Positions 3-46,600 of a stretch of DNA of 64,000 nt are shown here, piece after piece. Each line of letters begins with the position of its first letter. Positions within the stretch are counted from its first letter, which is position 1. The notes beneath the pieces are model-generated. The model was not told the origin of the DNA. It did not search any database and saw only the letters and a program-made list of their open reading frames with translations. Source of the DNA: an uncultured delta proteobacterium (lineage in GTDB: Bacteria; Desulfobacterota; Desulfobacteria; Desulfobacterales; SG8-13); NCBI GenBank assembly GCA_963848135.1, contig CAWKCK010000002.1, positions 62,001-126,000 of the forward strand. Direction: 5' to 3'. Position numbers and translations under genes: made by a program.

Positions 3-122
3 ATCGTTTCCATCAACGAACTGGCCGAAGATATCGGTGTTGCAGACCAACTGAAAAATTATCTGTCCTCCTGGCACCGGAAGTATGAAGCGCTGTTGGA
101 TAGATTGGGAATACACTTATAG
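3..122 (+). CDS. 3' end of an unknown gene entering the window
   Basis: Open frame from base 3 to TAG at 120-122 (IVSINELAEDIGVADQLKNYLSSWHRKYEALLDRLGIHL*), same strand as the following cluster. Confidence 0.5.
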   Translation: MVSINELAEDIGVADQLKNYLSSWHRKYEALLDRLGIHL

Positions 123-14593: not shown

Positions 14594-15370
14594 TTACTCT
14601 ATGAGCCTGAAGCGATGCTCGAGGTAGTAAACGGCGAGAGAGAGCGTCATCGTAATCGATAGGTAAATGACGGCGATCGTGAACCACAATTCAAAAACCA
14701 AAAAAGTTTGTGAAATTATGATTTGGCCTTGCATGGTGAGATCATAGATCGCAATCGTGCTGACCAGCGCCGAATCTTTGATGAGCGAAACGGCCTGACT
14801 CGTAAGGGGTGGCAGGATTTTTCGAATGGCTTGGGGAAGGATCACCAGCCGGTAGGTTTTCCACGAATTGAACCCAATGCTGTAAGCGGCTTCCCATTGC
14901 TCCTTAGGTATGGATAGAATGCCGGCACGGAAGATTTCGGATGCGTAGGCGCCTTCGAAAAGACTCAGTGCCAACACGGCTGATACAAATGCGCTGATGT
15001 CGAGCACGGGTGCCAGGACGAAATATATCAGAAATAGTTGCACCAGAAGCGGAGTGTTGCGCATCAATTCCAAATAGCCTCTGGCAAGGCCTCTGGCGAC
15101 AAATGAATGCGACAGACGGAAGAGGGCGGTGATCATGCCGAAGGCGAATGCGAGTGCGAGGCTGATCCCCGAAATTTGCAGCGTGATCTTGAGGCCGTCA
15201 ATCAACGGTCCGGCAATCAGATGACCGTCGCTGATGGAATACAGATAAGCCGGGACGCGATACCACTGCCAATTGTAGCCCAATGATTCAGCGCCGCGCA
15301 GAATCAGCCAGGTTATAGATCCCACAACCGCAAGATATTTAAGTATGTCAACCACGAACCGTGGCATCAT
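14594..15370 (-). CDS. Polar amino-acid ABC transporter permease
   Basis: YLELMRNTPLLVQL, AYASEIFRAGILSIPKEQWEAA, IKDSALVS; start at MMPRF. Confidence 0.9.
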   Translation of the reverse strand: MMPRFVVDILKYLAVVGSITWLILRGAESLGYNWQWYRVPAYLYSISDGHLIAGPLIDGLKITLQISGISLALAFAFGMITALFRLSHSFVARGLARGYLELMRNTPLLVQLFLIYFVLAPVLDISAFVSAVLALSLFEGAYASEIFRAGILSIPKEQWEAAYSIGFNSWKTYRLVILPQAIRKILPPLTSQAVSLIKDSALVSTIAIYDLTMQGQIIISQTFLVFELWFTIAVIYLSITMTLSLAVYYLEHRFRLIE

Positions 15371-15718
15371 CGATCTGACACCCGAAATACGAATATGACG
15401 TCCAGCGTAGTGCATGGCAAGGATCGACGCAGATGCAACATGAGTCTTCGGTGGGTTGGCAGCCGTCGACGACAGTGCGATTTGAAACCTTCGATTCAGG
15501 CAAGAATTACCGTTCGTTATCCCCGGGTAGATATCAACGCGCCGCGCGACGGTTTTTAATAATGTCAATATGAGGCCGCGCTGAAAGTTTGTCATGTAAC
15601 ATACGGGCCAAGGCCTTTTCCACCGGGGATTCCCCATGAACGATGAGAATGGAAATCAATTAACACATCAAGGTGGTGTTTGCAAATTGCACGCTTAAAA
15701 ATGGTGTCATAAAGATGA

Positions 15719-17092
15719 TCAGTTCACCAGGCTCTGAATCGGCGCTGGTATCCGGCCGCCGAGCCGAATAAACCGATTGGGACCCGGGGGATTTTTCACC
15801 GGCAGGATTACTGATTGGCCGAGAAGACCGCCAAAACGTGCCGTGTCGCCGGGTTTTTTACCGGGTACGGGGATCAGGCGCGTCGCAGTGGTCTTCCGGT
15901 TGATAACACCGATGGCCATTTCATCGGCGATGATGGCCGCAAGGGTATCTTCGGTTATATCTCCGGGGAGCGCGACCATATCGAGTCCAACAGAACAGAC
16001 ACTCGTTATGGCCTCGAGTTTTTCAAGGGTCAAATGTCCGTTGGCCGCTGCCTCGGAAATGTTCAGGTCTTCGCTGACCGGAATGAACGCGCCGCTGAGA
16101 CCGCCGACATTGGAGCTGGCGAATGCGCCGCCTTTTTTGACAGCGTCGTTGATCAGCGCCAAGGCGGCGGTCGTACCGGGAACCCCGATGCTGAACAGAC
16201 CGAGGCTTTGGAAAATTTCTCCTACGCTATCGCCGACATTCGGCGTTGGTGCCAAGGACAGATCAACCACACCGAAACGGATGTTGAGACTGTCGGCGAC
16301 CTCGCGGCCGATGAGTTCCCCGACACGAGTAACCTTATATGCCGTGTGTTTGATGAGCTCTGATATCTGACCGAGGTCCATATGGGTCTCGGTGGATAAT
16401 GCACGGTCGATAGCCTTTTTAACCACACCCGGTCCGCTGACGCCGACGTTGATGACGGCATCGGCTTCACCGATACCCAGATAGGCGCCGGCCATAAAGG
16501 GGATATCCTGGGGAATATTTGCGAATACGCAAAGTTTCGCACAGGCGATACCATCATCTCTGGCCGTCAGACTGGCGGCCCGTTTGATCTTTTGACCCAT
16601 TAGGTATACGGCGTCCATGTTTATTCCGGCGCGAGTGGACGCAACGTTGATCGACGCACACACCCGATCAGTTTCGGCCAGGGCCTCTGGAATGGCATCG
16701 ATGAGGGCCCGATCACCTTTGGCAATCCCCTTTTCGACAAGGGCGGTAAAACCGCCGATGAAATCGACGTTAACCTCCTTGGCTGCTTGATTGAGAGTAC
16801 GGGCGACGTCAATCATCTGAGAAGAGGAAAACGGCGCGGCAGCGACCGCTATCGGGCTTACGGAGATTCGTTTGTTAACCACCGGAATGCCGTATTTGTC
16901 ACCGACATGGTTGCACGCTCTAACCAGATGGCCGGCCAGATCTTTTATTTTGAACATGATGTTATCTTTGAAACGGTTGAGATCATGGCTGGCGCAGTCG
17001 AGCAAATTGATGCCCATGGTGACAGTCCGGACATCGAGGTGTTCATTCTGCACCATTTCGAGCGTTGAGAGGATTTCTCTTTCAGTTAGCAT
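15719..17092 (-). CDS. UPF0210/DUF711 family protein
   Basis: LDVRTVTMGINLLDC, PVVNKRISVSPI, GVSGPGVV, GGLSGAFIPVSED, VCSVGLDM, RIPAPIQSL. Confidence 0.9.
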   Translation of the reverse strand: MLTEREILSTLEMVQNEHLDVRTVTMGINLLDCASHDLNRFKDNIMFKIKDLAGHLVRACNHVGDKYGIPVVNKRISVSPIAVAAAPFSSSQMIDVARTLNQAAKEVNVDFIGGFTALVEKGIAKGDRALIDAIPEALAETDRVCASINVASTRAGINMDAVYLMGQKIKRAASLTARDDGIACAKLCVFANIPQDIPFMAGAYLGIGEADAVINVGVSGPGVVKKAIDRALSTETHMDLGQISELIKHTAYKVTRVGELIGREVADSLNIRFGVVDLSLAPTPNVGDSVGEIFQSLGLFSIGVPGTTAALALINDAVKKGGAFASSNVGGLSGAFIPVSEDLNISEAAANGHLTLEKLEAITSVCSVGLDMVALPGDITEDTLAAIIADEMAIGVINRKTTATRLIPVPGKKPGDTARFGGLLGQSVILPVKNPPGPNRFIRLGGRIPAPIQSLVN

Positions 17093-17157
17093 TTTCTGTT
17101 TCCAATAGTGTGATGAGCGTTTTTGTCGACAATCCCGGGCATTTTATGAATAATCAA

Positions 17158-17712
17158 TTAGATTCGATGTATGGCCTCGAAAATATTGCGATGCTGAATG
17201 CTGATCTGCAAATTAAGTTCTTCTGCTTTGCTTCGCAGATCACTATAAAAGCCTTGCTGGTCGATTTCGGCGGGCACGTCGACCTCATAGATCATGATGT
17301 TGTTGTTGGGGTCTTCACCGCCTTTGAAAACAGCCTGGAGATTGGTTACGTTGACACCATAGCGGGCAATGATCTCCGTAACAGCGGCAACCAACCCTTT
17401 GCGGTCAGGCCCCCGGGTGGTGATGACAAAGGCTTCGCTTCTCTCCATCGTGAAGAAGACCCTGCCGGGTTCGAGGGGTTTGACAAAAACATGGTGGTTC
17501 AAGGGGGCCAGCCCTTCTTTCAAATAATCTGCCAGTTCATCGATGGACAATTGGGGTGGCAGGGCCACGATAAAGATACCGCTGAATTCAGATTGGAGTA
17601 TGGTCTGGCTGACATTTTCGATGTTGCCGTCTTTTTCGACCAACATCTTGGATACCGCGGCGATGATGCCCGGTCGGTCAGGGCCCAAAACCGAAATCAT
17701 GACCTTGTTCAT
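17158..17712 (-). CDS. Tandem ACT-domain protein (GcvR-like)
   Basis: Two ACT repeats (VLGPDRPGIIA; TRGPDRKGLVA); ends QHRNIFEAIHRI as in the ACT partners of UPF0210. Confidence 0.85.
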   Translation of the reverse strand: MNKVMISVLGPDRPGIIAAVSKMLVEKDGNIENVSQTILQSEFSGIFIVALPPQLSIDELADYLKEGLAPLNHHVFVKPLEPGRVFFTMERSEAFVITTRGPDRKGLVAAVTEIIARYGVNVTNLQAVFKGGEDPNNNIMIYEVDVPAEIDQQGFYSDLRSKAEELNLQISIQHRNIFEAIHRI

Positions 17713-17813
17713 TCAATCACTCCTGCTGTTACCGGCACGGAATGCCAGGGTTCTTTACCGACAGTGTTTCTATTTATCGCCATTCTCTGCTTCGATAAAA
17801 TGGGCGAGTAGGG

Positions 17814-19040
17814 TCATAAGATCAGGCAGTCTGCGACAAGTTCCCAGAGGTATTTGACCTCGAGGTTTTTCATGCCGTAGTTTTCCTTTATATTGTTGAT
17901 CTGCCCGTGACAACTGTGGCAGGGGACCACGATCATTGACGCTCCGGTCGCCTTGATCTGTTCCATTTTTCTGCGGCCGTAGAAAATCCGTTCATCGTTG
18001 TATCCTGTTGTCAGCGCGCCGCCGCCACCGCCGCAGCAGATCTGGTGCTCCCTGCTGGGGTAAAGGTCTTGCCAGTTCTCGAGACACTGATCCATGACCC
18101 ATCTTGGTTCATTATAGAATCCGTGCCCGAACAGCTTTTCGGCTTTGCGGCAGTAATTGCAGGGGTCGTGATAGGTGGCGAGGGCATTGAAACGGGATTT
18201 ATCCAATTTGATGCGGCCCTCTTTGATATAGTTAATGAGCAAATCGAACACGGTGTATGTGCCGATTTTATTTAAAATCTCAGGGTACCATTTTTCGAGA
18301 CCAGACCTGGTCGAAAGGTAGGCGTGACCTCATTCCGGCCACATAAGATTTTTTATTTCCAGGGTTTCAAGCTGCTCGACAATTCGTCCCGCCATTGTTT
18401 TCATGGCGGTATCGTCACCGGTGAAGAATCCCCAACTGGTTCCTTCCCAGGCATTGGAGGTGATGGTCCAGTCTTCACCGGCGGCATGGAAGATCTTCCA
18501 CCAGTGTTTGAGGTCTTCAGTGTGTGTATTCACCAGCTTGTTGTGAATCGTAGACAAAATATTGGCGCCTTTCTTATCGATCGGCACCTCAAATGTTTCA
18601 AATCCCGGTTCTTCGGCCAATTCTTCGGCCACGTCCTGAACGATAAAAATAAAATCATCTTGGGGCAGTCCGAGGTTGTTGCCGGTCCGCATGGCGGCAT
18701 CGACGCCCTTGTGCAGTATGCCCGGTACGTGTTCCCGATCCCTGAGGGAACGGATACCGCGCATGATGTTCGGGATGTCGATTTCCATTGGGCAAAGATA
18801 TTCACATTTGGCGCACATGGTGCAGATCCAGGGCCATCGCGCCGCGACGATTTCATTTTCTGCGCCCAGGGCGGTCAGGCGGACGATTTTACGCGGATCG
18901 AATCCGTCTATACCCGATGCGGGGCAGGCGCTGGCGCACAGGCCACATGTCAGGCAGACATCCTGTGAATACGGCCATGACTCGAAACGCTCGCAGTCGA
19001 GAGCCTCTATATCGATCGGGGTTTTCGGTTTGTCGCTCAT
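17814..19040 (-). CDS. HdrD/DsrK-like Fe-S oxidoreductase (2x[4Fe-4S] + CCG domain), probable selenoprotein with Sec at TGA 18330-18332
   Basis: ORFs 18330..19040 and 17814..18251 are in one frame, separated only by one TGA in WPE-*-GHAY (family motif ECGHA); CLTCGLCASACP, CTMCAKCEYLCP, YHDPC, CCGGGG, PCHSC. Confidence 0.88.
18293..18329 (-). promoter_or_regulatory. Bacterial SECIS-like hairpin immediately 3' of the in-frame TGA
   Basis: Minus strand TGA-GGTCACGCCTACC-TTTCGACCA-GGTC-TGGTCTCGAAA; the core CAGGTCTG matches the E. coli fdhF SECIS apical region as I recall it. Confidence 0.8.
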
Positions 19041-19075
19041 CTATCACCTCTGGTCGTGGATTAATTCTTTCGTTC

Positions 19076-20653
19076 TTAGGGTTTTTCCATTTCATGCAAT
19101 TTTTGGGAAAAGCCCCGTATGATTTGTCCGAATTCGGTTTCCATGTTGGCTGCAAGTGTGCTGATGGCCAGACAGTTACCACCGCGGCCGATGCTGTCGA
19201 GAAGAACGGTCAGATGTTCGACACGCCTGTGGGCATGCTGGTTACCGGTTTCGGAATGGCAATTGCCGTCGTGGCAAGTGAGGACCAGAACGCCTGCGGC
19301 GCCGTGACAAAACGCCTCGAGAATAAATTCGGTGGACAGGGCGCCGGCGCAGGGGACTGTCACCACTTTCAGATTGGCCGGTATCTGATGGCCGGATTCG
19401 ACAGCCAGGCGGCTCGCCTGTGCGGCAGACCGGCTGCAACAGAAAGCCACAATCGCCGGATCGGTATCCGTTGTTTGACGGATGCCGGCACCCCTAATGT
19501 GATTCCCGACCTCGGCATCGAGATCCCCCAGCCGGATGGCCTTACGGGGGCATTCGGCGAAACATATGCCGCAGCCGGCACAGGCGTCGGCTGTGATCTC
19601 GATCCGTTTGCCTCGCTTTATTGCTCGATGGGGACACAACCGGTAGCATGTAAGGCAACGGATGCATTGACCGGTGTTAATTTCAGCCGTTACAACCGTG
19701 TGTTGCAGCGTCGTGTTGTCCAGACCGAGAACCGCTAGGGCGGCGCAGGCCGCCTCCGTAACGTAATCGTCTACCGAAAGGACCGCCCTGGCCGGACCCA
19801 CCGCCAGTATCCCTCGGCGGTTGGTGTTTACCGGTAGGCGATGAACGTTCTCTGTTTGCAAAAAACCGGCCGAATCGGTGTCGATTCTTAATATTTCGGC
19901 CAGGTTGGCCAGGTAAGCGGACGGGACAATGGTTTCGTCCACGACGATAATATCCGGTACGGCGCGGTAGATATGATCGGTGATTTCATCCCGGAATTCA
20001 ACTTCCCAGCCGTTGTTTTCAATCTGGTGGAGAGTTGGCAACGCGTCGGTAAACTTGAAAAAAAGCGCGCCGGAAGCCTTGGCCTGGCAATAAAGCGCTT
20101 CAAGCCCGCTACCGGCGACCTTCAGGTTGCCGGTAAGGACATGGGTCCGGGTACCGGGGAGAGTTTGCAGTGTTTGGGCGTAGTGCATGATTTCAGCAGC
20201 GATAACCGGCTCGCTCTCACGGGTGATACCGTTCAGAAAGACGATTTGCTTATTTTCAAAAGTACCGGCATCATTTTGGAGGTCTATGGCGAAATCGGAA
20301 AGTGTGCGGACGGACGGGCCCGCCTGAAGGGCGTAGTCTTCTATATTTTCTTTCCGGCGATTTTCTACAGCGATGACGATACTCGCCACCTGGCGATGTA
20401 TTTTTTCGCCGCTTTGGTCGAATGCGACTGCGAATTGTCCGACGAACCCTTTGCAGTCATTCAACCGCGCACCAGTGAGCACTTCTATAGACGCAGCAGC
20501 AACCGTTTGCGGTTGAGCCCGATTCAGTTTTACAAATTCGTCCTGCGCCCCATCTGTGTGGGCCAGAATGACGCTGCATCCCTGGGTCACGAGTTGTCGG
20601 GACACCGTCAAGGCGCAGATGCCGCTGCCGATTATCAATGTTGGGAGTGCCAA
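19076..20653 (-). CDS. HdrA-like flavoprotein fused to ferredoxin and MvhD domains (QmoB-like architecture)
   Basis: IIGSGICA, HdrA-like core, CIRCLTCYRLCP and CAGCGICFAECP, then MvhD-like AFCC...VPCAG...CHDGNCH; TTG start with GAGG RBS. Confidence 0.85.
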   Translation of the reverse strand: MALPTLIIGSGICALTVSRQLVTQGCSVILAHTDGAQDEFVKLNRAQPQTVAAASIEVLTGARLNDCKGFVGQFAVAFDQSGEKIHRQVASIVIAVENRRKENIEDYALQAGPSVRTLSDFAIDLQNDAGTFENKQIVFLNGITRESEPVIAAEIMHYAQTLQTLPGTRTHVLTGNLKVAGSGLEALYCQAKASGALFFKFTDALPTLHQIENNGWEVEFRDEITDHIYRAVPDIIVVDETIVPSAYLANLAEILRIDTDSAGFLQTENVHRLPVNTNRRGILAVGPARAVLSVDDYVTEAACAALAVLGLDNTTLQHTVVTAEINTGQCIRCLTCYRLCPHRAIKRGKRIEITADACAGCGICFAECPRKAIRLGDLDAEVGNHIRGAGIRQTTDTDPAIVAFCCSRSAAQASRLAVESGHQIPANLKVVTVPCAGALSTEFILEAFCHGAAGVLVLTCHDGNCHSETGNQHAHRRVEHLTVLLDSIGRGGNCLAISTLAANMETEFGQIIRGFSQKLHEMEKP

Positions 20654-20689
20654 GTTAACACCTCTGCATTCATTTACTCAATTTTGACG

Positions 20690-21745
20690 TTACTGCTTGA
20701 CCGCTGCTTTCAGGAACATGGCAGCTGCCAATGCCGCCCGGTCGGCCGAGGCAATGGACTCGGCAATGCTCATGGGACCGCCAACGGTTCCGGCAGTGAA
20801 AATACCGCCATCGGTTATGGCGGCATCTTTATCGTTGGATGGTATGAAGTCGGATTCCACAGTTGCGAGTCCGAACATGGCCGCCATATCACGGCTCTCC
20901 GCTGAAGGCGTGATTCCGATGGAAAGTACCAGCATATCGAAAAGTTCCTCGCGGCTTTCAGCGGCGCCTGTGTCGTAAAAAACAACCTTAAGACGATCTT
21001 CAGGTGTGCGGTAGACCTCGCCCGGAATCGCACGGATCATACGGATTTCATTTTTAACATCGTCGTAGAACTGCTGAAAGGTTTTACCGAAGGTTTGCAC
21101 GTCGATGTAAAAAAAGGCAATCTCGGTTTCCGGGCACCTCATTTTTATAAGGCGGGCCATGCGCAGGGCGGATGCACAGCACACCTTAGAACACCACGGG
21201 TGGCCAAGTTTGGCATCCCGACTTCCCACACACTGGACAAATGCCATACGGGCCGGGGTGCGACCGTCCGAGGGGCATTCGGGAATGCTGCTTTGCCTCA
21301 GCATCCTCTCCAGGTCGAGGTTCGTGACGACGTTCGGCAGTTTTTTGTACCCGTAGGGCATGCGCTGTGGGTCGAAAGGGCTGAAGCCGGAAGCAATGAT
21401 GACCGCCTGGGCCTCGCAATCAAAGTCATGCGACTCTGCTGTTGAGGGAGATTGCGAGATGGATGCCCGAAAATTATCTGGTTTTTCAACCCGGTCGATC
21501 CGGCTGTTGGTATGCACTTCTATTTGTGGATCTTCGATAACCTGCCCGATTTTTTCTGACACGATGCAGGCCCCGCATTTAACACAGGCATCGGTGGCCT
21601 TGCAGGTATACTGAGCGGCGAATCCGCCCAACCGGTCGGATTGCTCGACGATAACCGATCGAATTTTCAGGTGCGACAGACCGAGGGCTGCCGCAAGTCC
21701 GGCGATACCGCCGCCGACGATTAACACTTGGCTGTCAGATTGCAT
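20690..21745 (-). CDS. Short HdrA-like flavoprotein (QmoA-like)
   Basis: VLIVGGGIAG, YGYKKLPNVVTNLDLE, FVQCVGSRD, WCSKVCC, FYIDVQTFGK, GIFTAGTVGGPMSI. Confidence 0.88.
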   Translation of the reverse strand: MQSDSQVLIVGGGIAGLAAALGLSHLKIRSVIVEQSDRLGGFAAQYTCKATDACVKCGACIVSEKIGQVIEDPQIEVHTNSRIDRVEKPDNFRASISQSPSTAESHDFDCEAQAVIIASGFSPFDPQRMPYGYKKLPNVVTNLDLERMLRQSSIPECPSDGRTPARMAFVQCVGSRDAKLGHPWCSKVCCASALRMARLIKMRCPETEIAFFYIDVQTFGKTFQQFYDDVKNEIRMIRAIPGEVYRTPEDRLKVVFYDTGAAESREELFDMLVLSIGITPSAESRDMAAMFGLATVESDFIPSNDKDAAITDGGIFTAGTVGGPMSIAESIASADRAALAAAMFLKAAVKQ

Positions 21746-21938
21746 TGGTGAAAATCTCCCGCTGAAAAACCCAATGGTAAGATTGCGTCATACTGACTAT
21801 TCTTTGTGCGCTGGCATCGTTGTCTAATCCACTGTTGTTAAATTTATATAATAATCATCGTCTCCGGTCGTTGGTAACTCATGGAATTGTCAAACTCTGG
21901 GAGTCTCCACATCAAAGCTGGGGGATTACCGATGAATA

Positions 21939-22454
21939 TTATTTATTCGATTTTTTATAAGCTGTGACGATCCCTTCGATGCGATGGATCACATCGCTGG
22001 TGAGGGCGTCGGCCTTTTCGCTGGAGATCGTGCCGATGTCGGCCGAGAGACGCGCCGCGGTTTCCTCATCGATTTCGGTAATTTTGTTGATCAGAAATGT
22101 ATCCGCTTCGCCATCGTCCAGTAAAAGGCCGCAGGCGCCGACGGCGCCAATAAAGGTATCATCAAAAAAGATAGGTACGACGATCTTGACCAACCCGGCA
22201 TCGCATTCCTCAACCACTGGCTTCCGGGTCTGTTTGGCCTGGGTGGCAATGTTCATGTGGGCCACTGCACAGATAAAGCTTTGCCCCTTGTCAGTCGCTT
22301 TTACGGCCGGGCACAGCTTATTCACCCACTGCTTGAACTCGGAGATACGAACGCCATCGGTGTTGAAGACATTGACATCCATGCCGTACCGATTGTGGAT
22401 ATCATTTTCAAGTTCGACCCATTTCTCAAGCGGTAAAATGTCGGTCAGCTTCAT
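21939..22454 (-). CDS. Stand-alone PocR ligand-binding-domain protein
   Basis: MKLTDILPLEKWVELE..., conserved Cys (KLCPAVK, FICA, EECDAGL..IVVPI...FIGAVG); no output domain. Confidence 0.75.
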   Translation of the reverse strand: MKLTDILPLEKWVELENDIHNRYGMDVNVFNTDGVRISEFKQWVNKLCPAVKATDKGQSFICAVAHMNIATQAKQTRKPVVEECDAGLVKIVVPIFFDDTFIGAVGACGLLLDDGEADTFLINKITEIDEETAARLSADIGTISSEKADALTSDVIHRIEGIVTAYKKSNK

Positions 22455-22498
22455 GTCGGCTCCTTCCATAATAGAGAGTATCCTTTTCCCGTGTGTGG

Positions 22499-23512
22499 TT
22501 ACACCGTTTTGTGCTCATTTTCAAGCCACTCTTTCAGACGTTGCAAGCCGACCGTCGTGGATACCTTGGGGCGGTAACCGAGATCTTTACAGGCGGCGCC
22601 GATATCGAACCAGTGGGCCGAGGCCAGCTCCTCGGCGACGAACCGCGTCATTTGCGGTTCCCCATTGAGGCGCAGGGTGCGATGAACCCATTCGAGCACG
22701 GTTCCGATCACCATGGCCTTATTTAAAGAAATGGATTTTTGTACCGGTTTGTGGCCGCCGGCCTTTAAAATAGCGTTCACCATGTCCCAGAGGGGAATCG
22801 GTTCGCCCTGGCTGATGAAGTAAATACGGCCGGAAAGTTCGGGTCGTGATTTCAGGGCCACTGCTGCGAGAAGGTGAGCTTCGGCGGCATTGTCGATATA
22901 AACCGTGTCGACCAGATTGCGACCGTCCCCAATCCGCCGCAGCCGGCGGGCCCGTTCAATAATTCGTGGAACGAGATGGTTATCTCCCGGTCCCCAGATC
23001 AGATGCGGGCGCAGAATAATGGTTCTAACACCCTCCGAGGAGGCCCTGACAACGGCCTGTTCGGCCAGCGCCTTGGTGCGGGGGTAGGGGGATCGATAGC
23101 GTACCGGGTACGGCACCGATTCATCGACCCCTTCCATATCGCTCCCGTTAAAAACGACGCTGGGAGAGGAGGTATATACCAGGGCAGCGGTACCGACGGC
23201 TTTGCATGCAGCGATGATGTTTTGCGTTCCAATGACGTTGGTCTCATAGTAATCGGAGTCGCGTCCCCAGACACCGGTTTTTGCCGCCACGTGATAGACG
23301 GTGTCAATGTCTTTGCAGGCGGCGGCAACGGCGCCAAAGTCACTGATGTCCCCCTGATATTGTTCAACACCCGTCCTGTTAAGGGCCGGATGAAAGTGGC
23401 GTGAGAAGCTGCGCACCTGCGCCCCCTCTGCCAGAAGTCTCCTGACGACGGCATGTCCGAGAAAACCACCGCCGCCGGTAACGAGAGCTGTCGGTATTTT
23501 ACGGGTCGTCAT
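22499..23512 (-). CDS. oleD: 2-alkyl-3-oxoalkanoate reductase (3-beta-HSD-like SDR)
   Basis: LVTGGGGFLG, HVAAKTGVWG, YTSSPSVVF, YPRTK, LRPHLIWGPGD; last gene of an oleABCD order. Confidence 0.88.
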   Translation of the reverse strand: MTTRKIPTALVTGGGGFLGHAVVRRLLAEGAQVRSFSRHFHPALNRTGVEQYQGDISDFGAVAAACKDIDTVYHVAAKTGVWGRDSDYYETNVIGTQNIIAACKAVGTAALVYTSSPSVVFNGSDMEGVDESVPYPVRYRSPYPRTKALAEQAVVRASSEGVRTIILRPHLIWGPGDNHLVPRIIERARRLRRIGDGRNLVDTVYIDNAAEAHLLAAVALKSRPELSGRIYFISQGEPIPLWDMVNAILKAGGHKPVQKSISLNKAMVIGTVLEWVHRTLRLNGEPQMTRFVAEELASAHWFDIGAACKDLGYRPKVSTTVGLQRLKEWLENEHKTV

Positions 23513-23548
23513 GACAAGATTTAACCTTCAGACCGAAGCAAAACGGCA

Positions 23549-25246
23549 TCACGCAAGCTGCGTTTGCGCCCACCGCGCAAGCTTCTCACGGAATATCTTG
23601 GCGTTATGGCGGATATCCACCGGAAATTCGGTGGGATAGAGTATGTTTTCAATCGTTCGGGTGATATGGCTACTGCGGGCAAGCGTAATAAGCTCACGCG
23701 TGATCTGATTTCGATTTTTTCTCCTTGCGTCCGGTTCGAGCTCGATACACATGACCGGTTCCTGTCGGGGCGCTCGGCCGACACCTACGAGAGCACTGCG
23801 GTACACGCCAGGATGATTGTTGAAAATGGCTTCGCAGGGGATGGTGAACAGGGTTCCCCCATCGGTGATGACCCGCTGGCTTTTGCGGCCGTAGAACCAA
23901 ATTCTGCCTTGTTCATCGATACGGCCCAAATCTCCCATACGGTGCCAGAATGTTTCGCCATCCCTTATCTTTGCTAAAGCATCGGCGTCCGGGCGGTCGA
24001 AATATTGACGGGTCACTTGGTCGCCTTTGACGGTGATTTCACCCACGGCACCGTTCTCGACGAGTTCGGCATCGGACCAGCTGCCGAGGGCATGATCGCT
24101 AATGGCGATGATGCGCACTTCGATTGTGTCAAGGGGGCGGCCGACGCAAACCCCGCGTCCCTGTTCGCTCAACGTTCGTGTTTCGGCAAGAATTTCACGA
24201 CCCGTGATCGAAGACACCGGCATGGCTTCAGTCGCACCGTAGCCGGTATGGATCTCGGCATTGCCGCAAATCAGTGTCGAAAACTGCTCGATGTTGGCCG
24301 GCATTATCGGGGCTCCGGCGGAGATGACCCGTCTGAGGGATGGCAGTTTGACGCCGTTTTCCTTTCCATATCGACCGACTCTGTGGAGGAGGGCGGGTGA
24401 TGCGAACATATTGGTCACACCGTTCGATTCTACAGCCTCGATAATATTCACTGGATCGACATGAGCCGGTCGGGTCGGGTCCATATCGGGAATGACAGCC
24501 GTCATGCCGAGCGCTGGATCAAACAGGGCAAACAAGGGGAAGGTGGGCAGATCGATTTCATCGGTAGCAATTCCATAATGACTCCTGATCGTGTCTATTT
24601 GAGTCGCAAACACCCCGTGGGTGTATACGACCCCCTTGGCCGGGCCGGTACTACCGGTGGTAAACAGGATGGCTGCCGTTTCGTCGCGTCGCGTTTGTGC
24701 CAGAGGGTAGGGATCCATCCGAAGGTGGCGAAGTTCCGTCAGGCTGTGATGATTCCAAAATCGCCTCCGTCCGGCGACAATCCAGGTTTTGATAGATCTG
24801 AAAAACCGGGGGTACAGGGCCCGCAGAATATGGGCCTTGGGAATACCGATAAAGGCCGTGGGGCCTGATTGTTTGAAACAGCCGACCATACGCTTGAGGC
24901 CCATTCCCGGATCGACAACGACAGGCACGGCGCCGGTTTTGAACAGCGCAAAGGTCAGAACGAAAAAATCCAAACTGGGTTTGACCATCATAATGGTACG
25001 CGTCCCGCGCACGATCCCAACGTTTTCAAGCCCCCATGCCAGATGGTCAGAGTCACGATCCAATTGCTGGAATGTCAAATGAGAGTAGGATAACCGGCCA
25101 TACGCATCATGACCGTGCGGGTAAAGTACAGCGCGCTTGTAGGGTTGAATCCGCGCCATCCGCTTCAGAGATGACGCCACGTTGAAAAGGTTGCTCGGCG
25201 CGGCAGGCTCATCGGGGGATATTAATTTTATTGGTGACATTGACAT
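23549..25246 (-). CDS. oleC: Olefin beta-lactone synthetase (AMP-dependent ligase)
   Basis: AILFTTGSTGPAKG, DLPTFPLFALFDPALG, YGATEAMPVS, WHRMGDLG, FPVDIRHNAKIFREKL. Confidence 0.9.
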   Translation of the reverse strand: MSMSPIKLISPDEPAAPSNLFNVASSLKRMARIQPYKRAVLYPHGHDAYGRLSYSHLTFQQLDRDSDHLAWGLENVGIVRGTRTIMMVKPSLDFFVLTFALFKTGAVPVVVDPGMGLKRMVGCFKQSGPTAFIGIPKAHILRALYPRFFRSIKTWIVAGRRRFWNHHSLTELRHLRMDPYPLAQTRRDETAAILFTTGSTGPAKGVVYTHGVFATQIDTIRSHYGIATDEIDLPTFPLFALFDPALGMTAVIPDMDPTRPAHVDPVNIIEAVESNGVTNMFASPALLHRVGRYGKENGVKLPSLRRVISAGAPIMPANIEQFSTLICGNAEIHTGYGATEAMPVSSITGREILAETRTLSEQGRGVCVGRPLDTIEVRIIAISDHALGSWSDAELVENGAVGEITVKGDQVTRQYFDRPDADALAKIRDGETFWHRMGDLGRIDEQGRIWFYGRKSQRVITDGGTLFTIPCEAIFNNHPGVYRSALVGVGRAPRQEPVMCIELEPDARRKNRNQITRELITLARSSHITRTIENILYPTEFPVDIRHNAKIFREKLARWAQTQLA

Positions 25247-27559: not shown

Positions 27560-30500
27560 TCACCGCGAGACGATCCGTATACCATAATCCTTCATGTGGT
27601 AGATGGCCAAGCCATCGACGGTTAATATACCGTCGGCACGCAGCTCAGGTGTCGGTTGATTTTTAACAAACGTTATAAAGGCTTCCACCTTAACAGTATG
27701 GTTTTGTGGGATAATTTGCCCGCGGTATTGCCAGGTATGAGGGACCCGGTGGACGTGTTCGAATCGGTGGCCGTCGGTCAGGTTTCCCCAGCGTCGTATG
27801 GCATCATATTTCAGCAACTGTAAAAACGATTCAACTCCGAGCGAGCCGGGGCATACCGGATCCTGATAGAAGTGGGCCTTGAAAAACCATTCCCCCGGAT
27901 CGATTGTTTTGCTGGCACGCAGATAACCAATTCCTTTGGGTCCGCCGAGAGGGTCACAAAACTCAACGCGGTCTATCATTCGCAATGCTTTGGCCGGCAG
28001 GGACAACCCTTTTGCTGCCTTTGGATTGTCGGTGTCATCCGGTGTCAGCGGCGCTTCGTCCGGCAGAGAAATTTCCAGATTGGCATTCCGGCTATCCGAT
28101 TCGATATTTTCACGCAGGACCTTGTCGACGTTGATACCCTTCTGGTCGGCCAGGGATTCAGGCGTAAAGAAACCGAAGACGGTGTTGCCTTCATAAATCA
28201 TCTGGTCTTGTCCCAGCACCTGGAAATCGAAACTTTCAATAATAACGTCCCCGACACTCGAAACTTTTGTCATACGGCAGCGGATGTTCAGTACCTGATG
28301 GGCGGCGGGGATATCCCGGAGCAGGGTTGCTTGACCGTCGAGGTTTCTGAATCGCAATGCCTTGGAACTCTTGAGCGCTGAACCGGCATAGGCTGCCAAC
28401 CATCCGCAGGCTTGCAGTGCGATTTCCAGGAGGATGCAGTAGGGCATATTATCCGATCGGTTGGCCCTGAAGTACCAGTCATCGGGGCGAACATCGAACT
28501 CGGCCTCAATCCATCCTCCGGGTTTCAATTTCCAGGGCTCGGGCTCGACGGAGATGACCCGGTCGAGAAACGCGTATGGCGGGGCCGGGAGCCGGGCGAT
28601 AAAACGATCGCTATCGAATACGGTGTAGCGGTCACCGAATGCTTGAGACGGTTTGCCCGTGGTAAAAGCCAAAATTCGTTGCCGGTCGTATAGTGCCTGC
28701 TTTGGCAACCGGGTGGGAGGCCTGGCAACAGACGGCCGTCTCGCCTTCCAGTCATTCTCGAGAAGATCGCGGGTCAATCCGGACAGGCGTATCGCCATGT
28801 CCGTAAAACGCACGATGTAGCGGCCGTCGGCATACATATGCGCATCGGCCAGAGCATAGGGCGCAGGGTCATAGCCGAGTTCCTTGAGTTCGACCTCGTA
28901 GATCACCTGCCGGGTCCGGGGTGTTACCGGCCCACGGCACCGCAGAACGCTCTTGATACCCGGGATCGTATCGTAGTGAATGTCCGTCCGGTCAGATACC
29001 CAGCCCAACCGTTGCAGAAACACCCTCAGTGTGTGTGCGCAGCATTCGTACATCAGCGTACCGGGCATGGTCATATCGTCAACGAAATGGCAGGTCAGGA
29101 ACCAGTCATCGGGGTGAATGTCCGCTTCGGCTCGAATGGAACCGAGGCCATAGCGACCGCCGTGGGGATCGAGGTGCTGGATCCTGTCGATCAGCTTCAT
29201 ACGGCCATTCGGGAGCCTCAGGGACGGCGAAAGTACGACACCGTCAAAATCCGGCCCGAAACAGGCGGAAAGGTTACCCGTTCTCAGACATTCGATTTGG
29301 TCTTCGGTATAGCTCTCCCTTGCCTGGGGAACGAGTTCTGTCCATTGGGGATCCCGTTTCCCGGTCATCGTTTCGCGGTCCTCGGCCGTCGGGATGATTC
29401 CCCCCGAGTTTTGGATTTCTTCTTCGGTGAAAAAGCCGGCACACCCATCGGTCATGCTGATCAATGGCTGGTTGTTTATGGAGCCTTCAAAATTGAAGAA
29501 AAAAAGGACAGTCTGCCCCTGACGGATGAATTTTTCGATTTTTATTTCGTAGCGGATGGTATCTCCCGGACGGGGGAGTTCGCGATGGAAGACCACACTG
29601 GCGTCCAGCAATCGATAGACCCGTTCACCTTTTACCGCCAGGTCGATACCGAGGTATGCGCAAAGGAAGAGGTCGGCCTGACCGGCTTCCACGGCAATAC
29701 AGACCGGTGCGCGATCGCCATCGAGATACCAGGCGCCGGTCAGCACGTCGTGCTCGGTGACCAAGCGGCCCGATGTCAGAGACCCTTTGACGCCTTCTAC
29801 CGAAACGATGCGGTCAACCAGCATCAACGGTTCAGCCGGAAGACGGACACGCGTTCGATACGAATCGACCGGTGCAAAGTCCGCGCCGAGGACCCGGGCG
29901 ACTTTACCAATGGCAAATTCGAGACACTGTTTGCGATCATATGACACCGGGATTGATGATGCCGTATCGTAACGTGGTGCATGGATCGGTTCCGGACGAT
30001 TTCCCTCGTGCAAGGCGCTTCTGCGGGAGAGGGCTTCGACCAAGCGGGAGTGATAGGAAACCGCCTCATCGAACTTTCGCGATAAACCGGTCGAAAAATC
30101 GAGATATTGGCTGTGGGCGGCCGCTGTGGCCGTCATCGTCCGGGTAAATTCGTCGATCAGGTTTCCATGCGAGCTTTTCACTATAGGCACAACCGGGGAC
30201 GGTCGGTGTTTGTCGTCCAAAGGATCGAAAATCGGACTGTCCGATTGCGGCGGCTTTTGCGGCTTGAGGATTTCCGGCTCTTTGACGCCGGATGGCGGAA
30301 GTTTTTCATCCGGTTCGGGGGAAGACAGCGAACTTCTGGTTTCAGGCGAGGGGGTTGACTGCATACTGTCGGTGGCTTCCGGCGATGACGGGCAGAGAAT
30401 TTTGCCGCCGATGGGAATTTCAATGATGTTGCGTATGTCCCGTTGACCGGCAGCAGGACCTGGTCGTGAGCGGTCCACCTCCGGATACAGCCATTGCAGG

Positions 30501-33500
30501 TCTAACGGGACCCTTTCGGCGATAAGCGTGCCGATTCCCTTCAGCACCGATTCGATTCCGCCGGAACCCGGCAAGTCAAGAGAATAACTCAGGTGGGGTC
30601 GGTCTCCGAGAATACGCCGAATCATCCGGCTGCAGGAGGTACCGGGGCCCAATTCGAGAAAGAGGCGCACCCCGTCGGCATACGCCTGCTCGATCGTGGG
30701 TGGGAATTTAAAACCGTGCAGAGCCTGCGATAGAATGGAGTCAGCAGCGCTATCGGTGGTCGGTGTGTAAGCGCGCCCACTGGAGCAGCTATAGAAACGA
30801 ACCCCCTGGGGCGCAACCGTTGGAAATACATGCAGCGCCCTGTATTGGTCGGCCACCGGAGCCAAGACATCACAGTGTACGGTAATCACTCCGTTCAGAT
30901 CGATCGCTTGGCATTTGAGTCGGCGGATAAGAGTGGCGACCTGGTCTTGGTCGCCACCGACCACACACTCTTCAGGGGTATTAACGATCAATAACCTCAC
31001 TGTTGCAAGACCGTCTATGGCCTTGCGTATCGTTTCCGCCGGCCGATTGACCACGGCCGTTCGCCATTCGAATTTTTCACCGGCGCTCATTTTCCAGGCC
31101 TGCCGGGCCGCCAAACATGGACCGGATAGTTGCCTGTGAAAGAGATCGGTTGCCTGCATCCTTTCAAAGACCTCGTTGCGATCGGGCCAGGCCTTCATGG
31201 CAATAAGGCCGGTCACTTCGCCGAGGCTGTAACCGATGACGGCCTGGGGAATTACCTTGAAACACTGCATCAGCATGGTTGTCATGCAGCCGAAGGCCAC
31301 CGGGCCGATAATGGGATCGAGGGGGTCATTGGTAAAATTTTGCAGGTTGGTTTTCGGCCTGTCAGTACCATAGGACCGGGACATAAATACGTCCGGGCGG
31401 AATTGAGATTTTAAATGCAGCGTTTCGGTATCGAGCTGACGAATGACTTCCGGCCAATGTAAGGCGATCTCCCGCCCCATATCGGGGTAATGGTTGCCGG
31501 AGCCGGGATAGACAAAGGCGAGATCTCCGCCATTCAGGGGAGTGGGTCGAAAACAGACCCCGCCGACGGAACCGAAATCGCTTGGAATTTCAGCCTCAAT
31601 GGCCTGTCGCGCGTCATTTGTTAGTGTTTTAAGGTTGGCCACATCCGGTGCCAGCAGAACCGCAGCCAGCGGCAGTTTTGAATCGAGCGGTTGACGGTGC
31701 AACCAGCGGTGCGCCGCGTCTTCGGCGGTCAGTCGGCCGGTATTTTGTCTTTCGGCGTAGCGGCGGAGTTTCTCTACGGCCGCTAAAAGCGTCCGGGGGG
31801 TTTGGCCCTGAACGACGAATAAACCCAGTGCCGCCGGACCCAAGGGGTGCCGTTTTTCTTTTCGCTTGATGGGTTCAGCCAAGGCCAATCGGGGTAATCG
31901 GTCCGAAGCCTGCTGTAAAACGGTAGCGGCGATATTGCCATCGCCAGTGTCTACAACGATGCAGGCCCGGCGCGGCCCGTCCTGGCGGTTGCGGAACCAG
32001 TACCGCGGAAGCAGGGGTAATATGAAATCATGGCCCGGCCGGATATCGTTGGCCGCTGATCGGTAACCGGCCAGGGGTGGAATAATTTCTTGATAGAGAC
32101 TCAGCGCGGTTTTAACGACGGCCGCCAGTCCCGAAGCCGCACCTGAGTGCCCCAGGTTCGAAATGCTCGAGCCGACCGAACAGGGGTTTTTACCATCGGA
32201 AAACACAGCCTTTAGCGCCCGGGTAATCGTGCGGTCACGGTTTGGAATCCCCGGGGCAATCGTTTCCACGTATTCGATGTTGCGCGGTGACGCGTCGGCC
32301 TCCGTCAAGGCCTGTTTCAGGGCGAGGCTGAATGTCTCGGCACTGATACCGGTGCCAACCTCCGGGTCGCCGCAGGAATTCCCGATCCCGCTGACAAGTG
32401 CGTAAACGCGGTCACCGTCGGCAACAGCCTGCTCATGTCTCTTAAGAACCAGCGCCACGGCACCTTCTCCCGGGAGGGTACCGTCCGCTTCCGCGTCGAA
32501 AGGTGCTACCGTTCCTTTTGCTGAAAACAAACCGCTTTCGCGACTGGTGATGATTTGGCGGATATCACCGGCAAGATCGACCGCTCCCACCAGTACGGCG
32601 TCGGTTTCTTTTCGTTGAAGGGATCGGACACCGATTTCAAGGGCGCGGTTTCCTGAAGCAGCCTCTGCCGAGACCCCGAAACTCGCGCCGCCGAACCTGA
32701 ATTCCCGGGCAATCCGGCTGGCGATGATGCCACCGAGGGCGCCGAGAGTGCGGCTGGCGTTGAGGGGCGGTGAGGCGGCATTTTGAAGGGCCGATATCCA
32801 CTCATCAAGGGCCTGCTCATCCATACCGGGGAAATATTGCCGACGCCACTTCCGAGCAAGGGCGGGCAGGGACCAGCGAAAATGATAGGTGCTGGCTTCA
32901 AAATCAAAGTCGAGCCCGATAACGGCGCCCATTCTGGGGCGGTCCCTGACCTCGGAGAGACCGGCATCCGCCATGGCGCCGGCAGCCACTTGCAGCATCA
33001 GAAGGTGCTGGGGAAGAATATCGGGAATTTCCTTGGGAGGGATTCGAAACTCGTTGACGCCGATGCGAAGGTTAGGCATGAACCCGCCTCTGCGCGGCAG
33101 GTTTTCAGCTGATAAATCGAGCAGGGACGAGAGGCCTTTCCACCGGCCATTCGGTCGATCGCCAATAATGCTGCGACCGTTGAAAATCATTTCCTGAAAC
33201 GCCTGCAAGGAGACCATCGGCCCAAAAGATACCGCCATGCCGACCACGGCTATCGATGGGGGTTTTGTCGGCTTTGTCGATGCGGTTGTCTCTTCTCCGC
33301 CGGTGTCTGGGTTTATTACCGCTGGCAGAGCGCCGACTTTCGGTTTAGAATCTTCTGCCCACTCCTCGAGCAGAAGATGACCGTTGATGCCGCCAAAACC
33401 GAAAGCGCTTACCGCCGCCCGGCGACAACGATCCTGGGGAGACGGCCAATGCGCGTGATCGATCTGGACCCGAAACGGGCTGCCGGTCAGGGGGCTGTTC

Positions 33501-46100: not shown

Positions 46101-46600
46101 CGTTGAATGACATTTTCAGTGGTTTCTGATTCAACACCGGCGGCATCGAGGGCCTTTTTCCATCTGGGGAATCCAAGCCTGGCGCCGAGCGGGATGACCA
46201 GTTCCTGAGTTCCGGTAACACCGAGAATGACGCTCGTGCGGTCACGGTCGAATTTTTTATCTTCACCATAGCCGGCGTCCATCAAAGCCGCTTTGGCGAC
46301 CAGAAGACTCAGGAGCTGGGATGAGTCGGTCGCCTCGAGAGCGTTCGGGGGGATACCGAATTCGGTCGGATCGAAGGAGACCGCAGGTAAAAAACCGCCG
46401 TTTTTGCAGTACGTGTGGTCCGGGGTTGTTGGGTCAATGTCAAAATATTCATCCGCCGACCAATGGGTCGGCGGGACTTCACTGATGGCATTTTCAGCGT
46501 TGAATATGAGACGCCAGTATTCTTTCAGCCCCGGAGATTTTGGAAATATACAGCCGATGCCGATGACGGCCACTGGCACTGTGGTCGGTTGGTTTGACAT
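40109..46600 (-). CDS. pfaA: PUFA-synthase PfaA-type: KS-MAT-ACP-ACP-KR-DH
   Basis: KS DAACASS/HGTGT/KSMIGHTK; MAT FPGQGSQ/GHSFG/AAFHS; two ACPs with DLGIDSIKRVEIL; KR VTGGARGVT/DYAMANE; DH HMIGGKPVVP. Start at MSNQ (track begins 46672). Confidence 0.92.
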   Translation of the reverse strand: MSNQPTTVPVAVIGIGCIFPKSPGLKEYWRLIFNAENAISEVPPTHWSADEYFDIDPTTPDHTYCKNGGFLPAVSFDPTEFGIPPNALEATDSSQLLSLLVAKAALMDAGYGEDKKFDRDRTSVILGVTGTQELVIPLGARLGFPRWKKALDAAGVESETTENVIQRISDSYVAWQEGSFPGLLGNVVAGRICNRLDLRGTNCVVDAACASSLSAVHLALLEITSGRSDMVVTGGVDTLNDIFMHMCFAKTRILSPTGDARPFSIDADGTVLGEGIGLVVLKRLADAEKDGDRIYAVIRGIGSSSDGKSQSIYAPRADGQVVALRKAYDQAGVDPGTVDLIETHGTGTKVGDAVEFNALRQVFENGTDRNRKCAIGSVKSMIGHTKAAAGAAGLIKGVLALHHKVLPPTLKATQPDPKLEIAKSPFYINTHSSPWIADPAHPRRCGVSAFGFGGSNFHIVLEEHRPEKTEMTWDGSIEILALSASSKTELIRKIEAVRADIEKGAALSVAAVRSRRSFNEKDHHRLMWVHDRSADHSLHSPPVEADILAAELRQLQEGIETSATPRQGIYTGEGPPIGQLAFLFPGQGSQYPGMGRDLMCRFPEAFGALEAACRQFDDTERLYDAIYPHPATTPEELRHQTDVLRRTDITQPAIGAMSLALFKVLIAFGVVPHATAGHSFGELMALHAAGRIDEPTFLSLATTRGRLMAAANDSAPRSGMLAVKAPLEHLRELIDSHGSDVVLANCNTPNQGVLAGTYDALSTIETICRQKGYSSVMLPVAAAFHSQLVKVAQAPFKKALETITMSPGTIPVYSNSTGAPYPGGRAAATALLGDHLLKTVNFVQEIKNLFDSGIRTFIEVGPRNVLSGLVDEILAGENFQTLAMDATAGKRSSLSDIAHTICQLAAAGHRVDWRRWEPHHRQHRIPQMQIPLTGANYRNPSDLSPRPSNIPVKRAHEHNHPNRTIRNDMPGGGPSTRPERPPLQPEHPDGNPDLMKNMTPDIDLIKQALLTVQQSLASMQTLQRQTAETHQKFLDTQKEAGRTLQHMLEHSHRLTELSMGERPAVSAIGAQSAHTTIRETNAISYRTEPVVTPGVAAIDPRPTASVSSSKTTIPQGQVEDSHVSAHPPAASKPSPEPENRSDSNTVENLQQVLLAVVSELTGYPVDMIDPDMDIESDLGIDSIKRVEILSTLEERVPGMPAVAPDVIGKLKTLRQVADLLNVSEPVDTPLDSEPAPTSDSDLKADSVIPNFLPQNELLTVLLEVVSELTGYPNDMIGAEMDIEADLGIDSIKRVEILSAMEEKIPGLPTVAPDQLGKLKTLQQIVNHLTNKTPVETPAIDNQTPAKSTAIENQPDPPRSVPKPQPSPNLSRQVVTVVDKRPGQRTPVLIPSGRKVYITEDSHGLSTAIADTLGQLEINTVLISPNILKYKENLPPAGGLIVVLSPDNPLPVEELKEIFRLTTRLAPELKKSAAQGGALFATVSRLDGAFGFHGKGVSHPLQGALSGLVKTAAIEWNSVHCRAFDVAPGWQDHGAIAEKLVEELLGRDPSDPVELGLDTNRRYVLELEASPIAELKPMDSILAPGDVVIVTGGARGVTAASSIALANASGSRLNLLGRSPAPVPEPLWLKDLDDETAIKRAILDNDVSGGGSPTQLEAAYRKYMANREIANNLAAIKNAGASVRYVSVDIRDTDAVQQAISDIISTQGPVTAVVHGAGILEDRLIEDKTPDQFQRVFETKVRGLENILAASGTKDLRHLILFSSVSGRMGNRGQADYAMANEALNKIAQQFSAHNPNCRVVAINWGPWDGGMVTASLKREFHRRGVALIPTDLGARHLVAEMCVTSQPQVEVIVGGTGFSVVKEVPNAESIEVDVEKITGNNLSLTFQRDIDLGTHPVLRSHMIGGKPVVPLALMTEWFGHGALHENPGLQLQGLDDIRVLKGIIIEGIKKHVRVLAGKARKTGSGFEVPVELRDGVQDNVEVVHSRARAILVDTLKPAPDYRIPDTLTQRPYTRTIQQVYEQILFHGPDLHGIREITHLSSYGMIAQLDPAPAPSDWLKEPLRNNWIADPLALDAAFQMATVWCYEEKGTASLPSYCANYRQYRPRFPADGLTAVLEVDSVSSFKMKGTITFLDGEGIVVARISGCEAVMDQTLHNSFKPAAA

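Follow-up and report, generated by a model that had tools for sequence, protein, structure and literature searches.

The window analysed here is a stretch of 64,000 nucleotides (nt) of contig CAWKCK010000002.1 (positions 62,001 to 126,000 of the forward strand) in assembly GCA_963848135.1, from an uncultured delta proteobacterium of the Desulfobacterales. The subject is a gene on its minus strand, termed hdrD(Sec) below, which is predicted to encode an HdrD-like iron-sulfur selenoprotein. Its frame runs from an ATG at 19040 to a terminal TGA at 17816-17814 and is open throughout except for a single TGA at 18332-18330, located within the codons ATG TGG CCG GAA TGA GGT CAC GCC TAC. Translation of this locus with table 11 splits it into two open reading frames (ORFs), 19040..18330, encoding 236 residues, and 18251..17814, encoding 145 residues from a GTG start at 18251. 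When the internal TGA is translated as selenocysteine (Sec, U) a protein of 408 residues is obtained, with U at residue 237 in the context ...NLMWPE-U-GHAYLSTR..., and this bears out an earlier examination of the letters alone (the sequence-only reading), according to which the WPE-U-GHAY frame stays open to 17814 as one 408-residue protein. It is judged, with a probability of roughly 0.9 and on the strength of the sequence comparisons described below, that 19040..17814 is one intact and real selenoprotein gene of 408 residues in which UGA codon 237 is recoded to Sec. The features of the locus are listed in Table 1.

Table 1. Coordinates of hdrD(Sec), its predicted elements and its neighbouring genes in the window.
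Feature	Position	Strand	Basis or remark
Whole selenoprotein gene (predicted), 408 codons and terminal TGA	17814..19040	minus	HdrD-like: HdrC-like part fused to HdrB-like part
In-frame TGA, codon 237, in P-E-U-G-H, read as Sec	18330..18332	minus	Column comparison
Ribosome-binding-site-like (Shine-Dalgarno-like) hexamer GAGGTG, 4 nt 5' of the ATG at 19040	19045..19050	minus	Sequence read directly
Predicted selenocysteine insertion sequence (SECIS) hairpin, nt 17-40 from the U of UGA	18293..18316	minus	Folds, pair counts in orthologues, published constraints
HdrC-like part, codons 29-83, two CxxCxxCxxxCP motifs	18792..18956	minus	Columns invariant in alignments A1 and A3
Single complete CCG motif, codons 294-377	17910..18161	minus	Invariant columns of alignment A3, Pfam CCG, alignment to HdrB
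525-residue gene: HdrA C-terminal-like part, 2x[4Fe-4S] ferredoxin and MvhD (FlpD)	19076..20653	minus	Pfam, NCBIfam; upstream of hdrD(Sec)
351-residue gene: HdrA-like part binding flavin adenine dinucleotide	20690..21745	minus	Pfam, NCBIfam; upstream
PocR sensory domain only, 176 residues, just upstream of the hdr genes	21939-22469	minus	Pfam
ACT-domain protein and DUF711 (UPF0210) protein, directly downstream	15719-17712	minus	Pair kept in the 10 closest of 80 related loci only

The codon was compared across the best 80 of 243 confirmed relatives from other genomes, mostly metagenome-assembled genomes of Desulfobacterales, whose proteins are 66-94% identical to the one studied. Desulfatirhabdium butyrativorans is represented in these loci by metagenome assemblies alone (L035, L062). 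A TGA is present at the Sec column in all 80 loci, with the context WPE-U-GH in 76, CPE-U-GHS in two and WCE-U-GH in two. The four orthologues with the rarer contexts (L038 and L041 with CPE-U-GHS, L054 and L085 with WCE-U-GH) thereby carry an additional Cys, placed one or three residues N-terminal to the Sec, and the resulting CxU and CxxU patterns could permit the formation of a selenenyl-sulfide.

A full-length homologue with Cys at this column, the form P0007 with a fused helix-turn-helix domain, was used as the query against 151 genomes sampled from the same order and was meant to yield Cys-containing controls. The 65 best matches (E <= 4.7e-138), which include the window's own gene, each contained at least one TGA. 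As the order has mostly Sec forms, the Cys controls were drawn from a more distant tier of matches and from paralogues in the window's own genome. This gave 23 stop-free homologues, of which 19 are more distant same-order matches and four are own-genome paralogues (a further paralogue that was fetched, L110, gave no tblastn match), and all 23 have TGC or TGT at the Sec column. Full-length homologues were also taken from the databases, and among 17 of these (474-534 residues, 42-50% identity, alignment A1) the column is occupied by Cys in 12, within LLPECGHAY, by Ser in three and by Leu and Ala in one each. The closest full-length Cys forms in this alignment (P0007-P0100) have an extra N-terminal DNA-binding domain of the HTH_17/MerR type fused to the Fer4 and CCG body, and could be redox-sensing regulators rather than enzymes.

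The frame beyond the TGA was examined in 74 distinct orthologous sequences. Non-majority letters 3' of the TGA occur at frequencies of 0.12, 0.08 and 0.34 at codon positions 1, 2 and 3, respectively, and such variation, being mainly at third positions, shows purifying selection on the same frame.

Immediately 3' of the TGA the transcript is predicted to form a hairpin. Its upper stem comprises the five base pairs (bp) GACCA/UGGUC and is capped by the apical loop GGUC at 18307-18304, corresponding to nt 26-29 when the U of UGA is counted as nt 1, and beyond a 2-nt bulge there is a lower stem, UUUC/GAAA, of four pairs. The GGUC loop is reached 22 nt after the UGA, and the hairpin with its lower stem begins 13 nt after it. 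According to the Fig. 2 legend of a 2026 review, the bacterial SECIS consensus has an apical loop of 3-9 nt and an upper stem of 4-16 bp, with a G within the first two positions of the loop, a distance from UGA to loop of 16-37 nt and an energy of <= -7.5 kcal/mol (PMC13188914). The predicted hairpin lies within these published constraints, having a 4-nt GGUC loop, a 5-bp upper stem, a spacing of 22 nt and an energy of -7.8 kcal/mol.

Pairing within this hairpin was counted in the same 74 orthologous sequences. Pair 24-31 is formed in all of them and pair 23-32 in 73, and pair 21-34 is found as G-C (53 sequences), A-U (11) or G-U (10). The closing pair, 25-30, is A-U in 30 sequences and C-G in 27, and both of its sites are synonymous, one being the first base of an Arg codon and the other the third base of a Ser codon. 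Of the remaining 17 sequences, 13 pair completely after a one-base slip of the register, and four have a mismatch at the closing pair only. The number of cells paired, the number of cells changed on both sides and the covariation score were each above all 500 shuffles and all slid controls. Furthermore, a hairpin loop containing GU and starting at nt 20-32 is predicted in 65 of the 74 Sec forms and, by a hand count from the loop lists, in five of the 23 Cys forms, where its positions are scattered. In the window's own genome, the TGA of selD and those of two paralogous Sec genes are likewise followed by hairpins, whose loops, located at +21 to +29, read GGUC, GGU or GUU. The SECIS element of Escherichia coli fdhF also has a GGUC loop. 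For the studied gene, SelB carrying Sec-tRNA(Sec) would recognise the hairpin 3' of the UGA, with its GGUC apical loop.

The genome to which the window belongs (6.03 Mb in 18 contigs, 98.65% complete) encodes the machinery for Sec insertion. Matches above the model cut-offs were found for selA (622 bits, cut-off 268), selB (374 bits, cut-off 242), selD (372 bits, cut-off 125) and tRNA-Sec (76.5 bits, cut-off 47), and ARAGORN identified the latter as tRNA-SeC with anticodon TCA. The selD gene (L010, contig C3) itself has an in-frame TGA, in SKTCG-U-AAK, followed by a GGUC hairpin loop at +21..24, the same loop as in the studied gene. The sequence-only reading had described a hairpin GACCA-GGTC-TGGTC with its loop 22 nt after the TGA, which is present on the sequence as described and agrees with the bacterial model in the review legend (PMC13188914). 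It had also proposed that homologues should show a pairing of Cys with TGA at this column and that the genome should encode the Sec machinery, and both were found: Cys in 12 of the 17 full-length and all 23 stop-free homologues against TGA in all 80 orthologous loci, and selA, selB, selD and tRNA-Sec(TCA) above their cut-offs in the same genome.

The encoded protein is a soluble fusion of HdrC-like and HdrB-like parts, and thus HdrD-like, without a membrane part. Pfam assigns a 4Fe-4S dicluster domain (Fer4_8/Fer4_17) to residues 27-88 and a CCG domain to residues 289-381. In the HdrC-like part the residues C29, C32, C35 and C39, and C73, C76, C79 and C83, are invariant and are predicted to form two cubane [4Fe-4S] sites. 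The CCG motif consists of C294, C335-C336-G and C374-x-x-C377, all invariant in alignment A3, and is the predicted site of one noncubane [4Fe-4S] cluster. HdrB and canonical HdrD are recognised by two complete CX(n)CCGX(n)CX2C motifs; in the studied protein only the C-terminal motif is complete, and in the N-terminal half of the HdrB-like part U237 is the sole Cys-type residue at a motif position.

Comparison with solved structures gave the same arrangement. Sequence searches (phmmer, and hmmsearch against PDB) matched residues 25-131 to HdrC and, where HdrB is concerned, the C-terminal CCG domain only, residues 284-390 to HdrB 143-251. An AlphaFold model built from a 36-sequence alignment (predicted local distance difference test 85.8, predicted template modelling score 0.86) was matched by Foldseek to EtfD of Mycobacterium smegmatis (E 2.9e-13, template modelling score by query 0.70), to HdrC, and to whole HdrB chains, the latter with 278-283 aligned columns against chains of 283-296 residues. 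As the HdrC match ends near residue 131 and whole HdrB chains align, the TGA does not mark a subunit boundary but falls ~87 residues into the HdrB-like fold.

The position of the Sec can be compared with that of a conserved Cys in related enzymes. The DsrMKJOP, Hmc and Tmc complexes have DsrK, HmcF and TmcB, respectively, as their catalytic subunits (Barbosa et al. 2024, PMC10861901). In that paper's account of these subunits, each has one CCG motif, and one Cys of the missing motif is strictly conserved in the string (T/G)ECGH; this lone Cys is described as probably catalytic, and the reduction of disulfides or trisulfides is proposed to depend on it (PMC10861901). In P-E-U-G-H, at residues 235-239, the Sec occupies the position of this lone Cys, and its presence at a proposed catalytic position supports a residue that carries out redox chemistry and is not merely structural. 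The sequence-only reading had suggested a cluster ligand or catalytic residue in an otherwise Cys-poor first CCG domain, which accords with the published description of the Cys as a remnant of the missing CCG motif that is probably catalytic (PMC10861901). The own genome has seven HdrD-like genes, with Sec at this place in three (the studied gene and two paralogues on contig C18 with NTE-U-GHE) and Cys in four (ECGH or ECGT).

In the structural model U237 is situated between a strand (231-233) and a helix (238-251), and C374 is likewise situated between a strand (369-372) and a helix (375-388). At the corresponding place the N-terminal domain of HdrB reads T-E-C-N-G-C. Based on this matching secondary structure, the spacing of the motif and the HdrB string, U237 appears to replace the first Cys of the lost CX2C, and would lie beside the remaining noncubane cluster. 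In the part of the EtfD study that deals with cluster ligation, the residues concerned are Cys581, His583 and Cys584, with His583 ligating the noncubane cluster (PMC13083937). U237 would then be equivalent to HdrB Cys78 and EtfD Cys581, an assignment made from motif, spacing and secondary structure and not from a computed alignment. When the N-terminal pseudo-CCG half was compared with the C-terminal CCG half using hhalign, the match was not significant (probability 0.4%, E = 0.15).

In the public databases, most of the close relatives of this protein are shorter than the predicted product. Among the best 120 database matches, 89 are fragments of 232-257 residues that cover 54-58% of the query, and the four fragments that were aligned all end at ...WPE. 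Some fragments from JGI are named 'heterodisulfide reductase subunit C', and in an NCBI record a fragment of 235 residues from Desulfonema magnum carries the name '4Fe-4S dicluster domain-containing protein'. No full-length form closer than 52% identity is present among these 120 matches. Because the public calls end at the Sec codon, the catalytic half has been lost from the annotations of many Desulfobacterales genomes. That standard pipelines would split the gene had been foreseen by the sequence-only reading and is seen in the 89 fragments, the NCBI Desulfonema magnum record among them. Its description of the selenoprotein as 'hidden' is correct with regard to these pipelines and not with regard to the literature, in which the GlpC selenoprotein family and its UGH motif are already catalogued.

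The TGA could be a true stop, in which case the locus would encode a 236-residue HdrC-like ferredoxin and a separate HdrB-like piece of 145 residues from the GTG at 18251, similar to the HdrC and HdrB of methanogens. Table 11 yields exactly two such ORFs, the public gene callers produced the corresponding 232-257-residue fragment in 89 of the best 120 matches, and the complexes with solved structures contain HdrC and HdrB as separate chains. However, the break does not fall at the boundary between HdrC and HdrB; it would cut the HdrB-like fold ~87 residues in, and this location within the fold argues against two polypeptides. In addition, the 26 codons between the TGA and the GTG at 18251 are conserved in frame with variation at third positions, the stop would fall exactly on the column that holds Cys in 23 of 23 stop-free homologues, and a conserved SECIS-type hairpin lies directly 3' of it, so this explanation is considered very unlikely. 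A different matter is a pseudogene, or a TGA that arose by error in assembly or sequencing where the gene has TGC or TGT, as a single-base change to TGA would mimic the observed picture in one genome. However, all 80 of 80 independent assemblies, with proteins 66-94% identical, share this TGA, the 65 best matches from the 151 genomes sampled in the same order also contain a TGA, and purifying selection acts on the downstream frame, which leaves this explanation with almost no probability.

A third possibility accepts that the UGA is read through and differs in the residue inserted, which might not be, or not only be, Sec: Cys, Trp or another residue could be inserted by near-cognate decoding, or Cys could be carried on tRNA-Sec at low selenium. 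The inserted residue is not readable from the sequence, and Cys works at the column of position 237 in paralogues from the same genome. Against this, the Sec machinery is complete, the hairpin fits the SelB-type SECIS model and resembles the hairpins that follow the TGA in selD and in the two own-genome paralogues, and no other recoding signal was seen. Insertion of a residue other than Sec is therefore regarded as very improbable, and the prediction of a single gene with a UGA recoded to Sec is preferred.

This prediction has evidence weighing against it as well, much of which concerns the hairpin. Its energy of -7.8 kcal/mol passes the limit of -7.5 kcal/mol narrowly. The 35-nt hairpin is no more stable than its shuffles (z = -0.85, with 35 of 200 shuffles folding as well), a 76-nt stretch gave a similar result against shuffles (z = -0.83), and an Rfam scan of 15000-23000 at E <= 10 returned no SECIS family and only four chance-level matches. 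With no thermodynamic excess over shuffles and no Rfam match, the support for the hairpin is comparative. Within that comparison, pairs changed on both sides were not above shuffles (339 of 500 were as high), nor were further pair types (325 of 500 were as high), and since the orthologous sequences are related to one another, the covariation counts overstate their independence. The presence of Ser, Leu or Ala at the column in five of the 17 full-length homologues indicates that the residue is not indispensable in every branch. A listing of sequencing runs showed no RNA run with the stretch, and the best DNA runs contained 0.26-0.37 of the sampled words. In the family table of the 2026 review, the GlpC selenoprotein family is graded 'predicted with high confidence' (PMC13188914). 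Finally, the mechanism and the partners proposed for the protein rest on inference.

Selenoproteins of this type have been described before. A 'Fe-S oxidoreductase (GlpC, COG0247)-like' selenoprotein family of Deltaproteobacteria is among those catalogued by Zhang et al. 2006 (PMC1794560), GlpC selenoproteins are included in the counts for the Olavius algarvensis consortium by Zhang & Gladyshev 2007 (PMC1976440), and the GlpC-type family is listed in the table of a 2022 review (PMC9312934) and in the table of the 2026 review, there with the motif 'UGH' and one Sec (PMC13188914). By its architecture and UGH motif the studied gene appears to fit this family, the comparison being with the family's published description. 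Shared with that description are the 4Fe-4S dicluster and CCG architecture, the single Sec in U-G-H, a host from the Deltaproteobacteria/Desulfobacterota and linkage to hdrA and mvhD (frhD) genes, and an orthologue of the studied gene is present in an assembly of an Olavius algarvensis symbiont (L097). The operon glpC-hdrA-frhD-frhG-frhA, as published, is described as frequent and not as defining (PMC1794560). In contrast to it, the gene order here is hdrA(N)-hdrA(C)/mvhD-hdrD(Sec), with no hydrogenase gene among the neighbours scanned, and the HdrA and MvhD of the studied locus are not selenoproteins. Catalogues have included the family and its UGH motif since the mid-2000s, for about twenty years, and for this reason the locus opens no new question; it does add a well-documented case of selenium at the proposed catalytic Cys position of DsrK-type disulfide reductases with a single CCG motif.

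Several other known systems resemble the studied protein. In the genome description of Desulfobacterium autotrophicum HRM2, HdrD4 is reported to contain Sec, and the hdrA4 locus and then a deduced hdrD2 are given (Strittmatter et al. 2009, PMC2702500). The HdrD group of this strain is likened here by its description, as a soluble HdrCB fusion ('HdrD') without transmembrane parts in the Desulfobacteraceae (PMC2702500). DsrK, HmcF and TmcB share with the studied protein one complete CCG motif and the lone (T/G)ECGH position (PMC10861901), which has Sec here instead of Cys, and they differ from it also in that the partners at the studied locus are HdrA- and MvhD-like. Direct identity with any of the three was considered and rejected, as the best NCBIfam models scored far below their cut-offs (HmcF 187.9 against 750, TmcB 175.2 against 735, DsrK 148 against 400) and no membrane partner is encoded nearby. 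HdrB and HdrC of methanogen HdrABC (PDB 5ODC and 8RVU, among others) have the same fold, and the C-terminal CCG motif aligns to HdrB 143-251. They differ in that HdrB carries both CCG motifs in complete form, with two noncubane clusters, while in the studied protein the first motif is reduced to a single Sec. EtfD (PDB 9OJN) also has the same fold, and its Cys581, His583 and Cys584, as identified in the account of its clusters, resemble P-E-U-G-H-A (PMC13083937). Unlike the studied protein, the mycobacterial EtfD is described there with a linear [3Fe-4S] cluster and a noncubane cluster and with a membrane domain (PMC13083937).

The genes adjacent to hdrD(Sec) suggest the context in which it acts. 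Of the 80 related loci, 73 have the hdrA-C/mvhD fusion gene upstream in the same orientation and 66 have the hdrA-N gene there, of which only 65 include at least 2700 nt of upstream sequence. The idea that these two upstream Hdr genes are one gene split by a Sec codon was tried and rejected; they share a common frame, but there is a true stop between them. No frhG/frhA hydrogenase gene, membrane cytochrome b or NrfD-type partner was found among the neighbours scanned with Pfam and NCBIfam. We infer that the module is a cytoplasmic thiol-disulfide (heterodisulfide-type) reductase of the HdrA/MvhD/HdrD kind, with the selenoprotein as its catalytic subunit and the product of the hdrA-C/mvhD fusion gene as a likely partner subunit. 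The selenoprotein would act in this role together with the HdrA-like flavoprotein and the HdrA/ferredoxin/MvhD fusion. Electrons would pass from the HdrA flavin along the Fe-S chain to the noncubane cluster, and the selenolate of U237 would stand in for the lost cluster as a second centre that binds or attacks sulfur.

A more specific and rather doubtful proposal for this soluble HdrA-MvhD-HdrD module is that one selenolate takes over the function of an entire noncubane [4Fe-4S] cluster. In such an enzyme, H239 would correspond to the His of EtfD that ligates the noncubane cluster, and U237 would attack one sulfur of the disulfide or trisulfide substrate to give an Se-S adduct, and this adduct would be resolved by the remaining cluster, one electron at a time. 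A resolving Cys would be added in the rare WCE-U-GH and CPE-U-GHS variants. If this proposal were true, and if the HdrA-like partner bifurcates electrons, the module would be a selenium-dependent bifurcating disulfide reductase.

Related modules were observed elsewhere in the same genome. The two paralogues on contig C18, L106 and L105 (regions L167 1-10443 and L166 6454-15976), are HdrD-like genes with Sec in NTE-U-GHE whose products are 35-36% identical to that of the studied gene. Both are located near large double HdrA-like ORFs and adjoin a methylenetetrahydrofolate reductase gene (metF). In L167, the region scanned for mvhD, the order is hdrA (~1000 residues)-mvhD-hdrA (~1000 residues)-hdrD(Sec)-metF, and in L166 an HdrA-like read-through frame of 1528 codons is followed by metF and then hdrD(Sec). 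In each of the big HdrA-like ORFs of L167, and in its mvhD, the frame reads through a single TGA, and several selenoprotein genes with a link to the Wood-Ljungdahl pathway may therefore follow one another in this region.

Around the studied locus, the ACT/DUF711 gene pair is probably a separate unit and not part of the reductase module, given that so few of the 80 loci have it. A gene for a PocR domain only is present upstream on the same strand in 23 of the 80 related loci and downstream in two more. Further along the minus strand, the stretch 22499-25246 encodes a protein similar to the 2-alkyl-3-oxoalkanoate reductase OleD (393 bits against a cut-off of 580) and an OleC-like protein of the olefin beta-lactone synthetase or fatty-acid CoA ligase family (743 bits for the ligase-family model NF006754), the latter scoring 624 bits against the olefin beta-lactone synthetase model with its cut-off of 900. 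These look like genes of olefin (ole) biosynthesis. The window also has two very long ORFs on the minus strand, of 2377 residues at 27560-34693 and of 2187 residues at 40109-46672.

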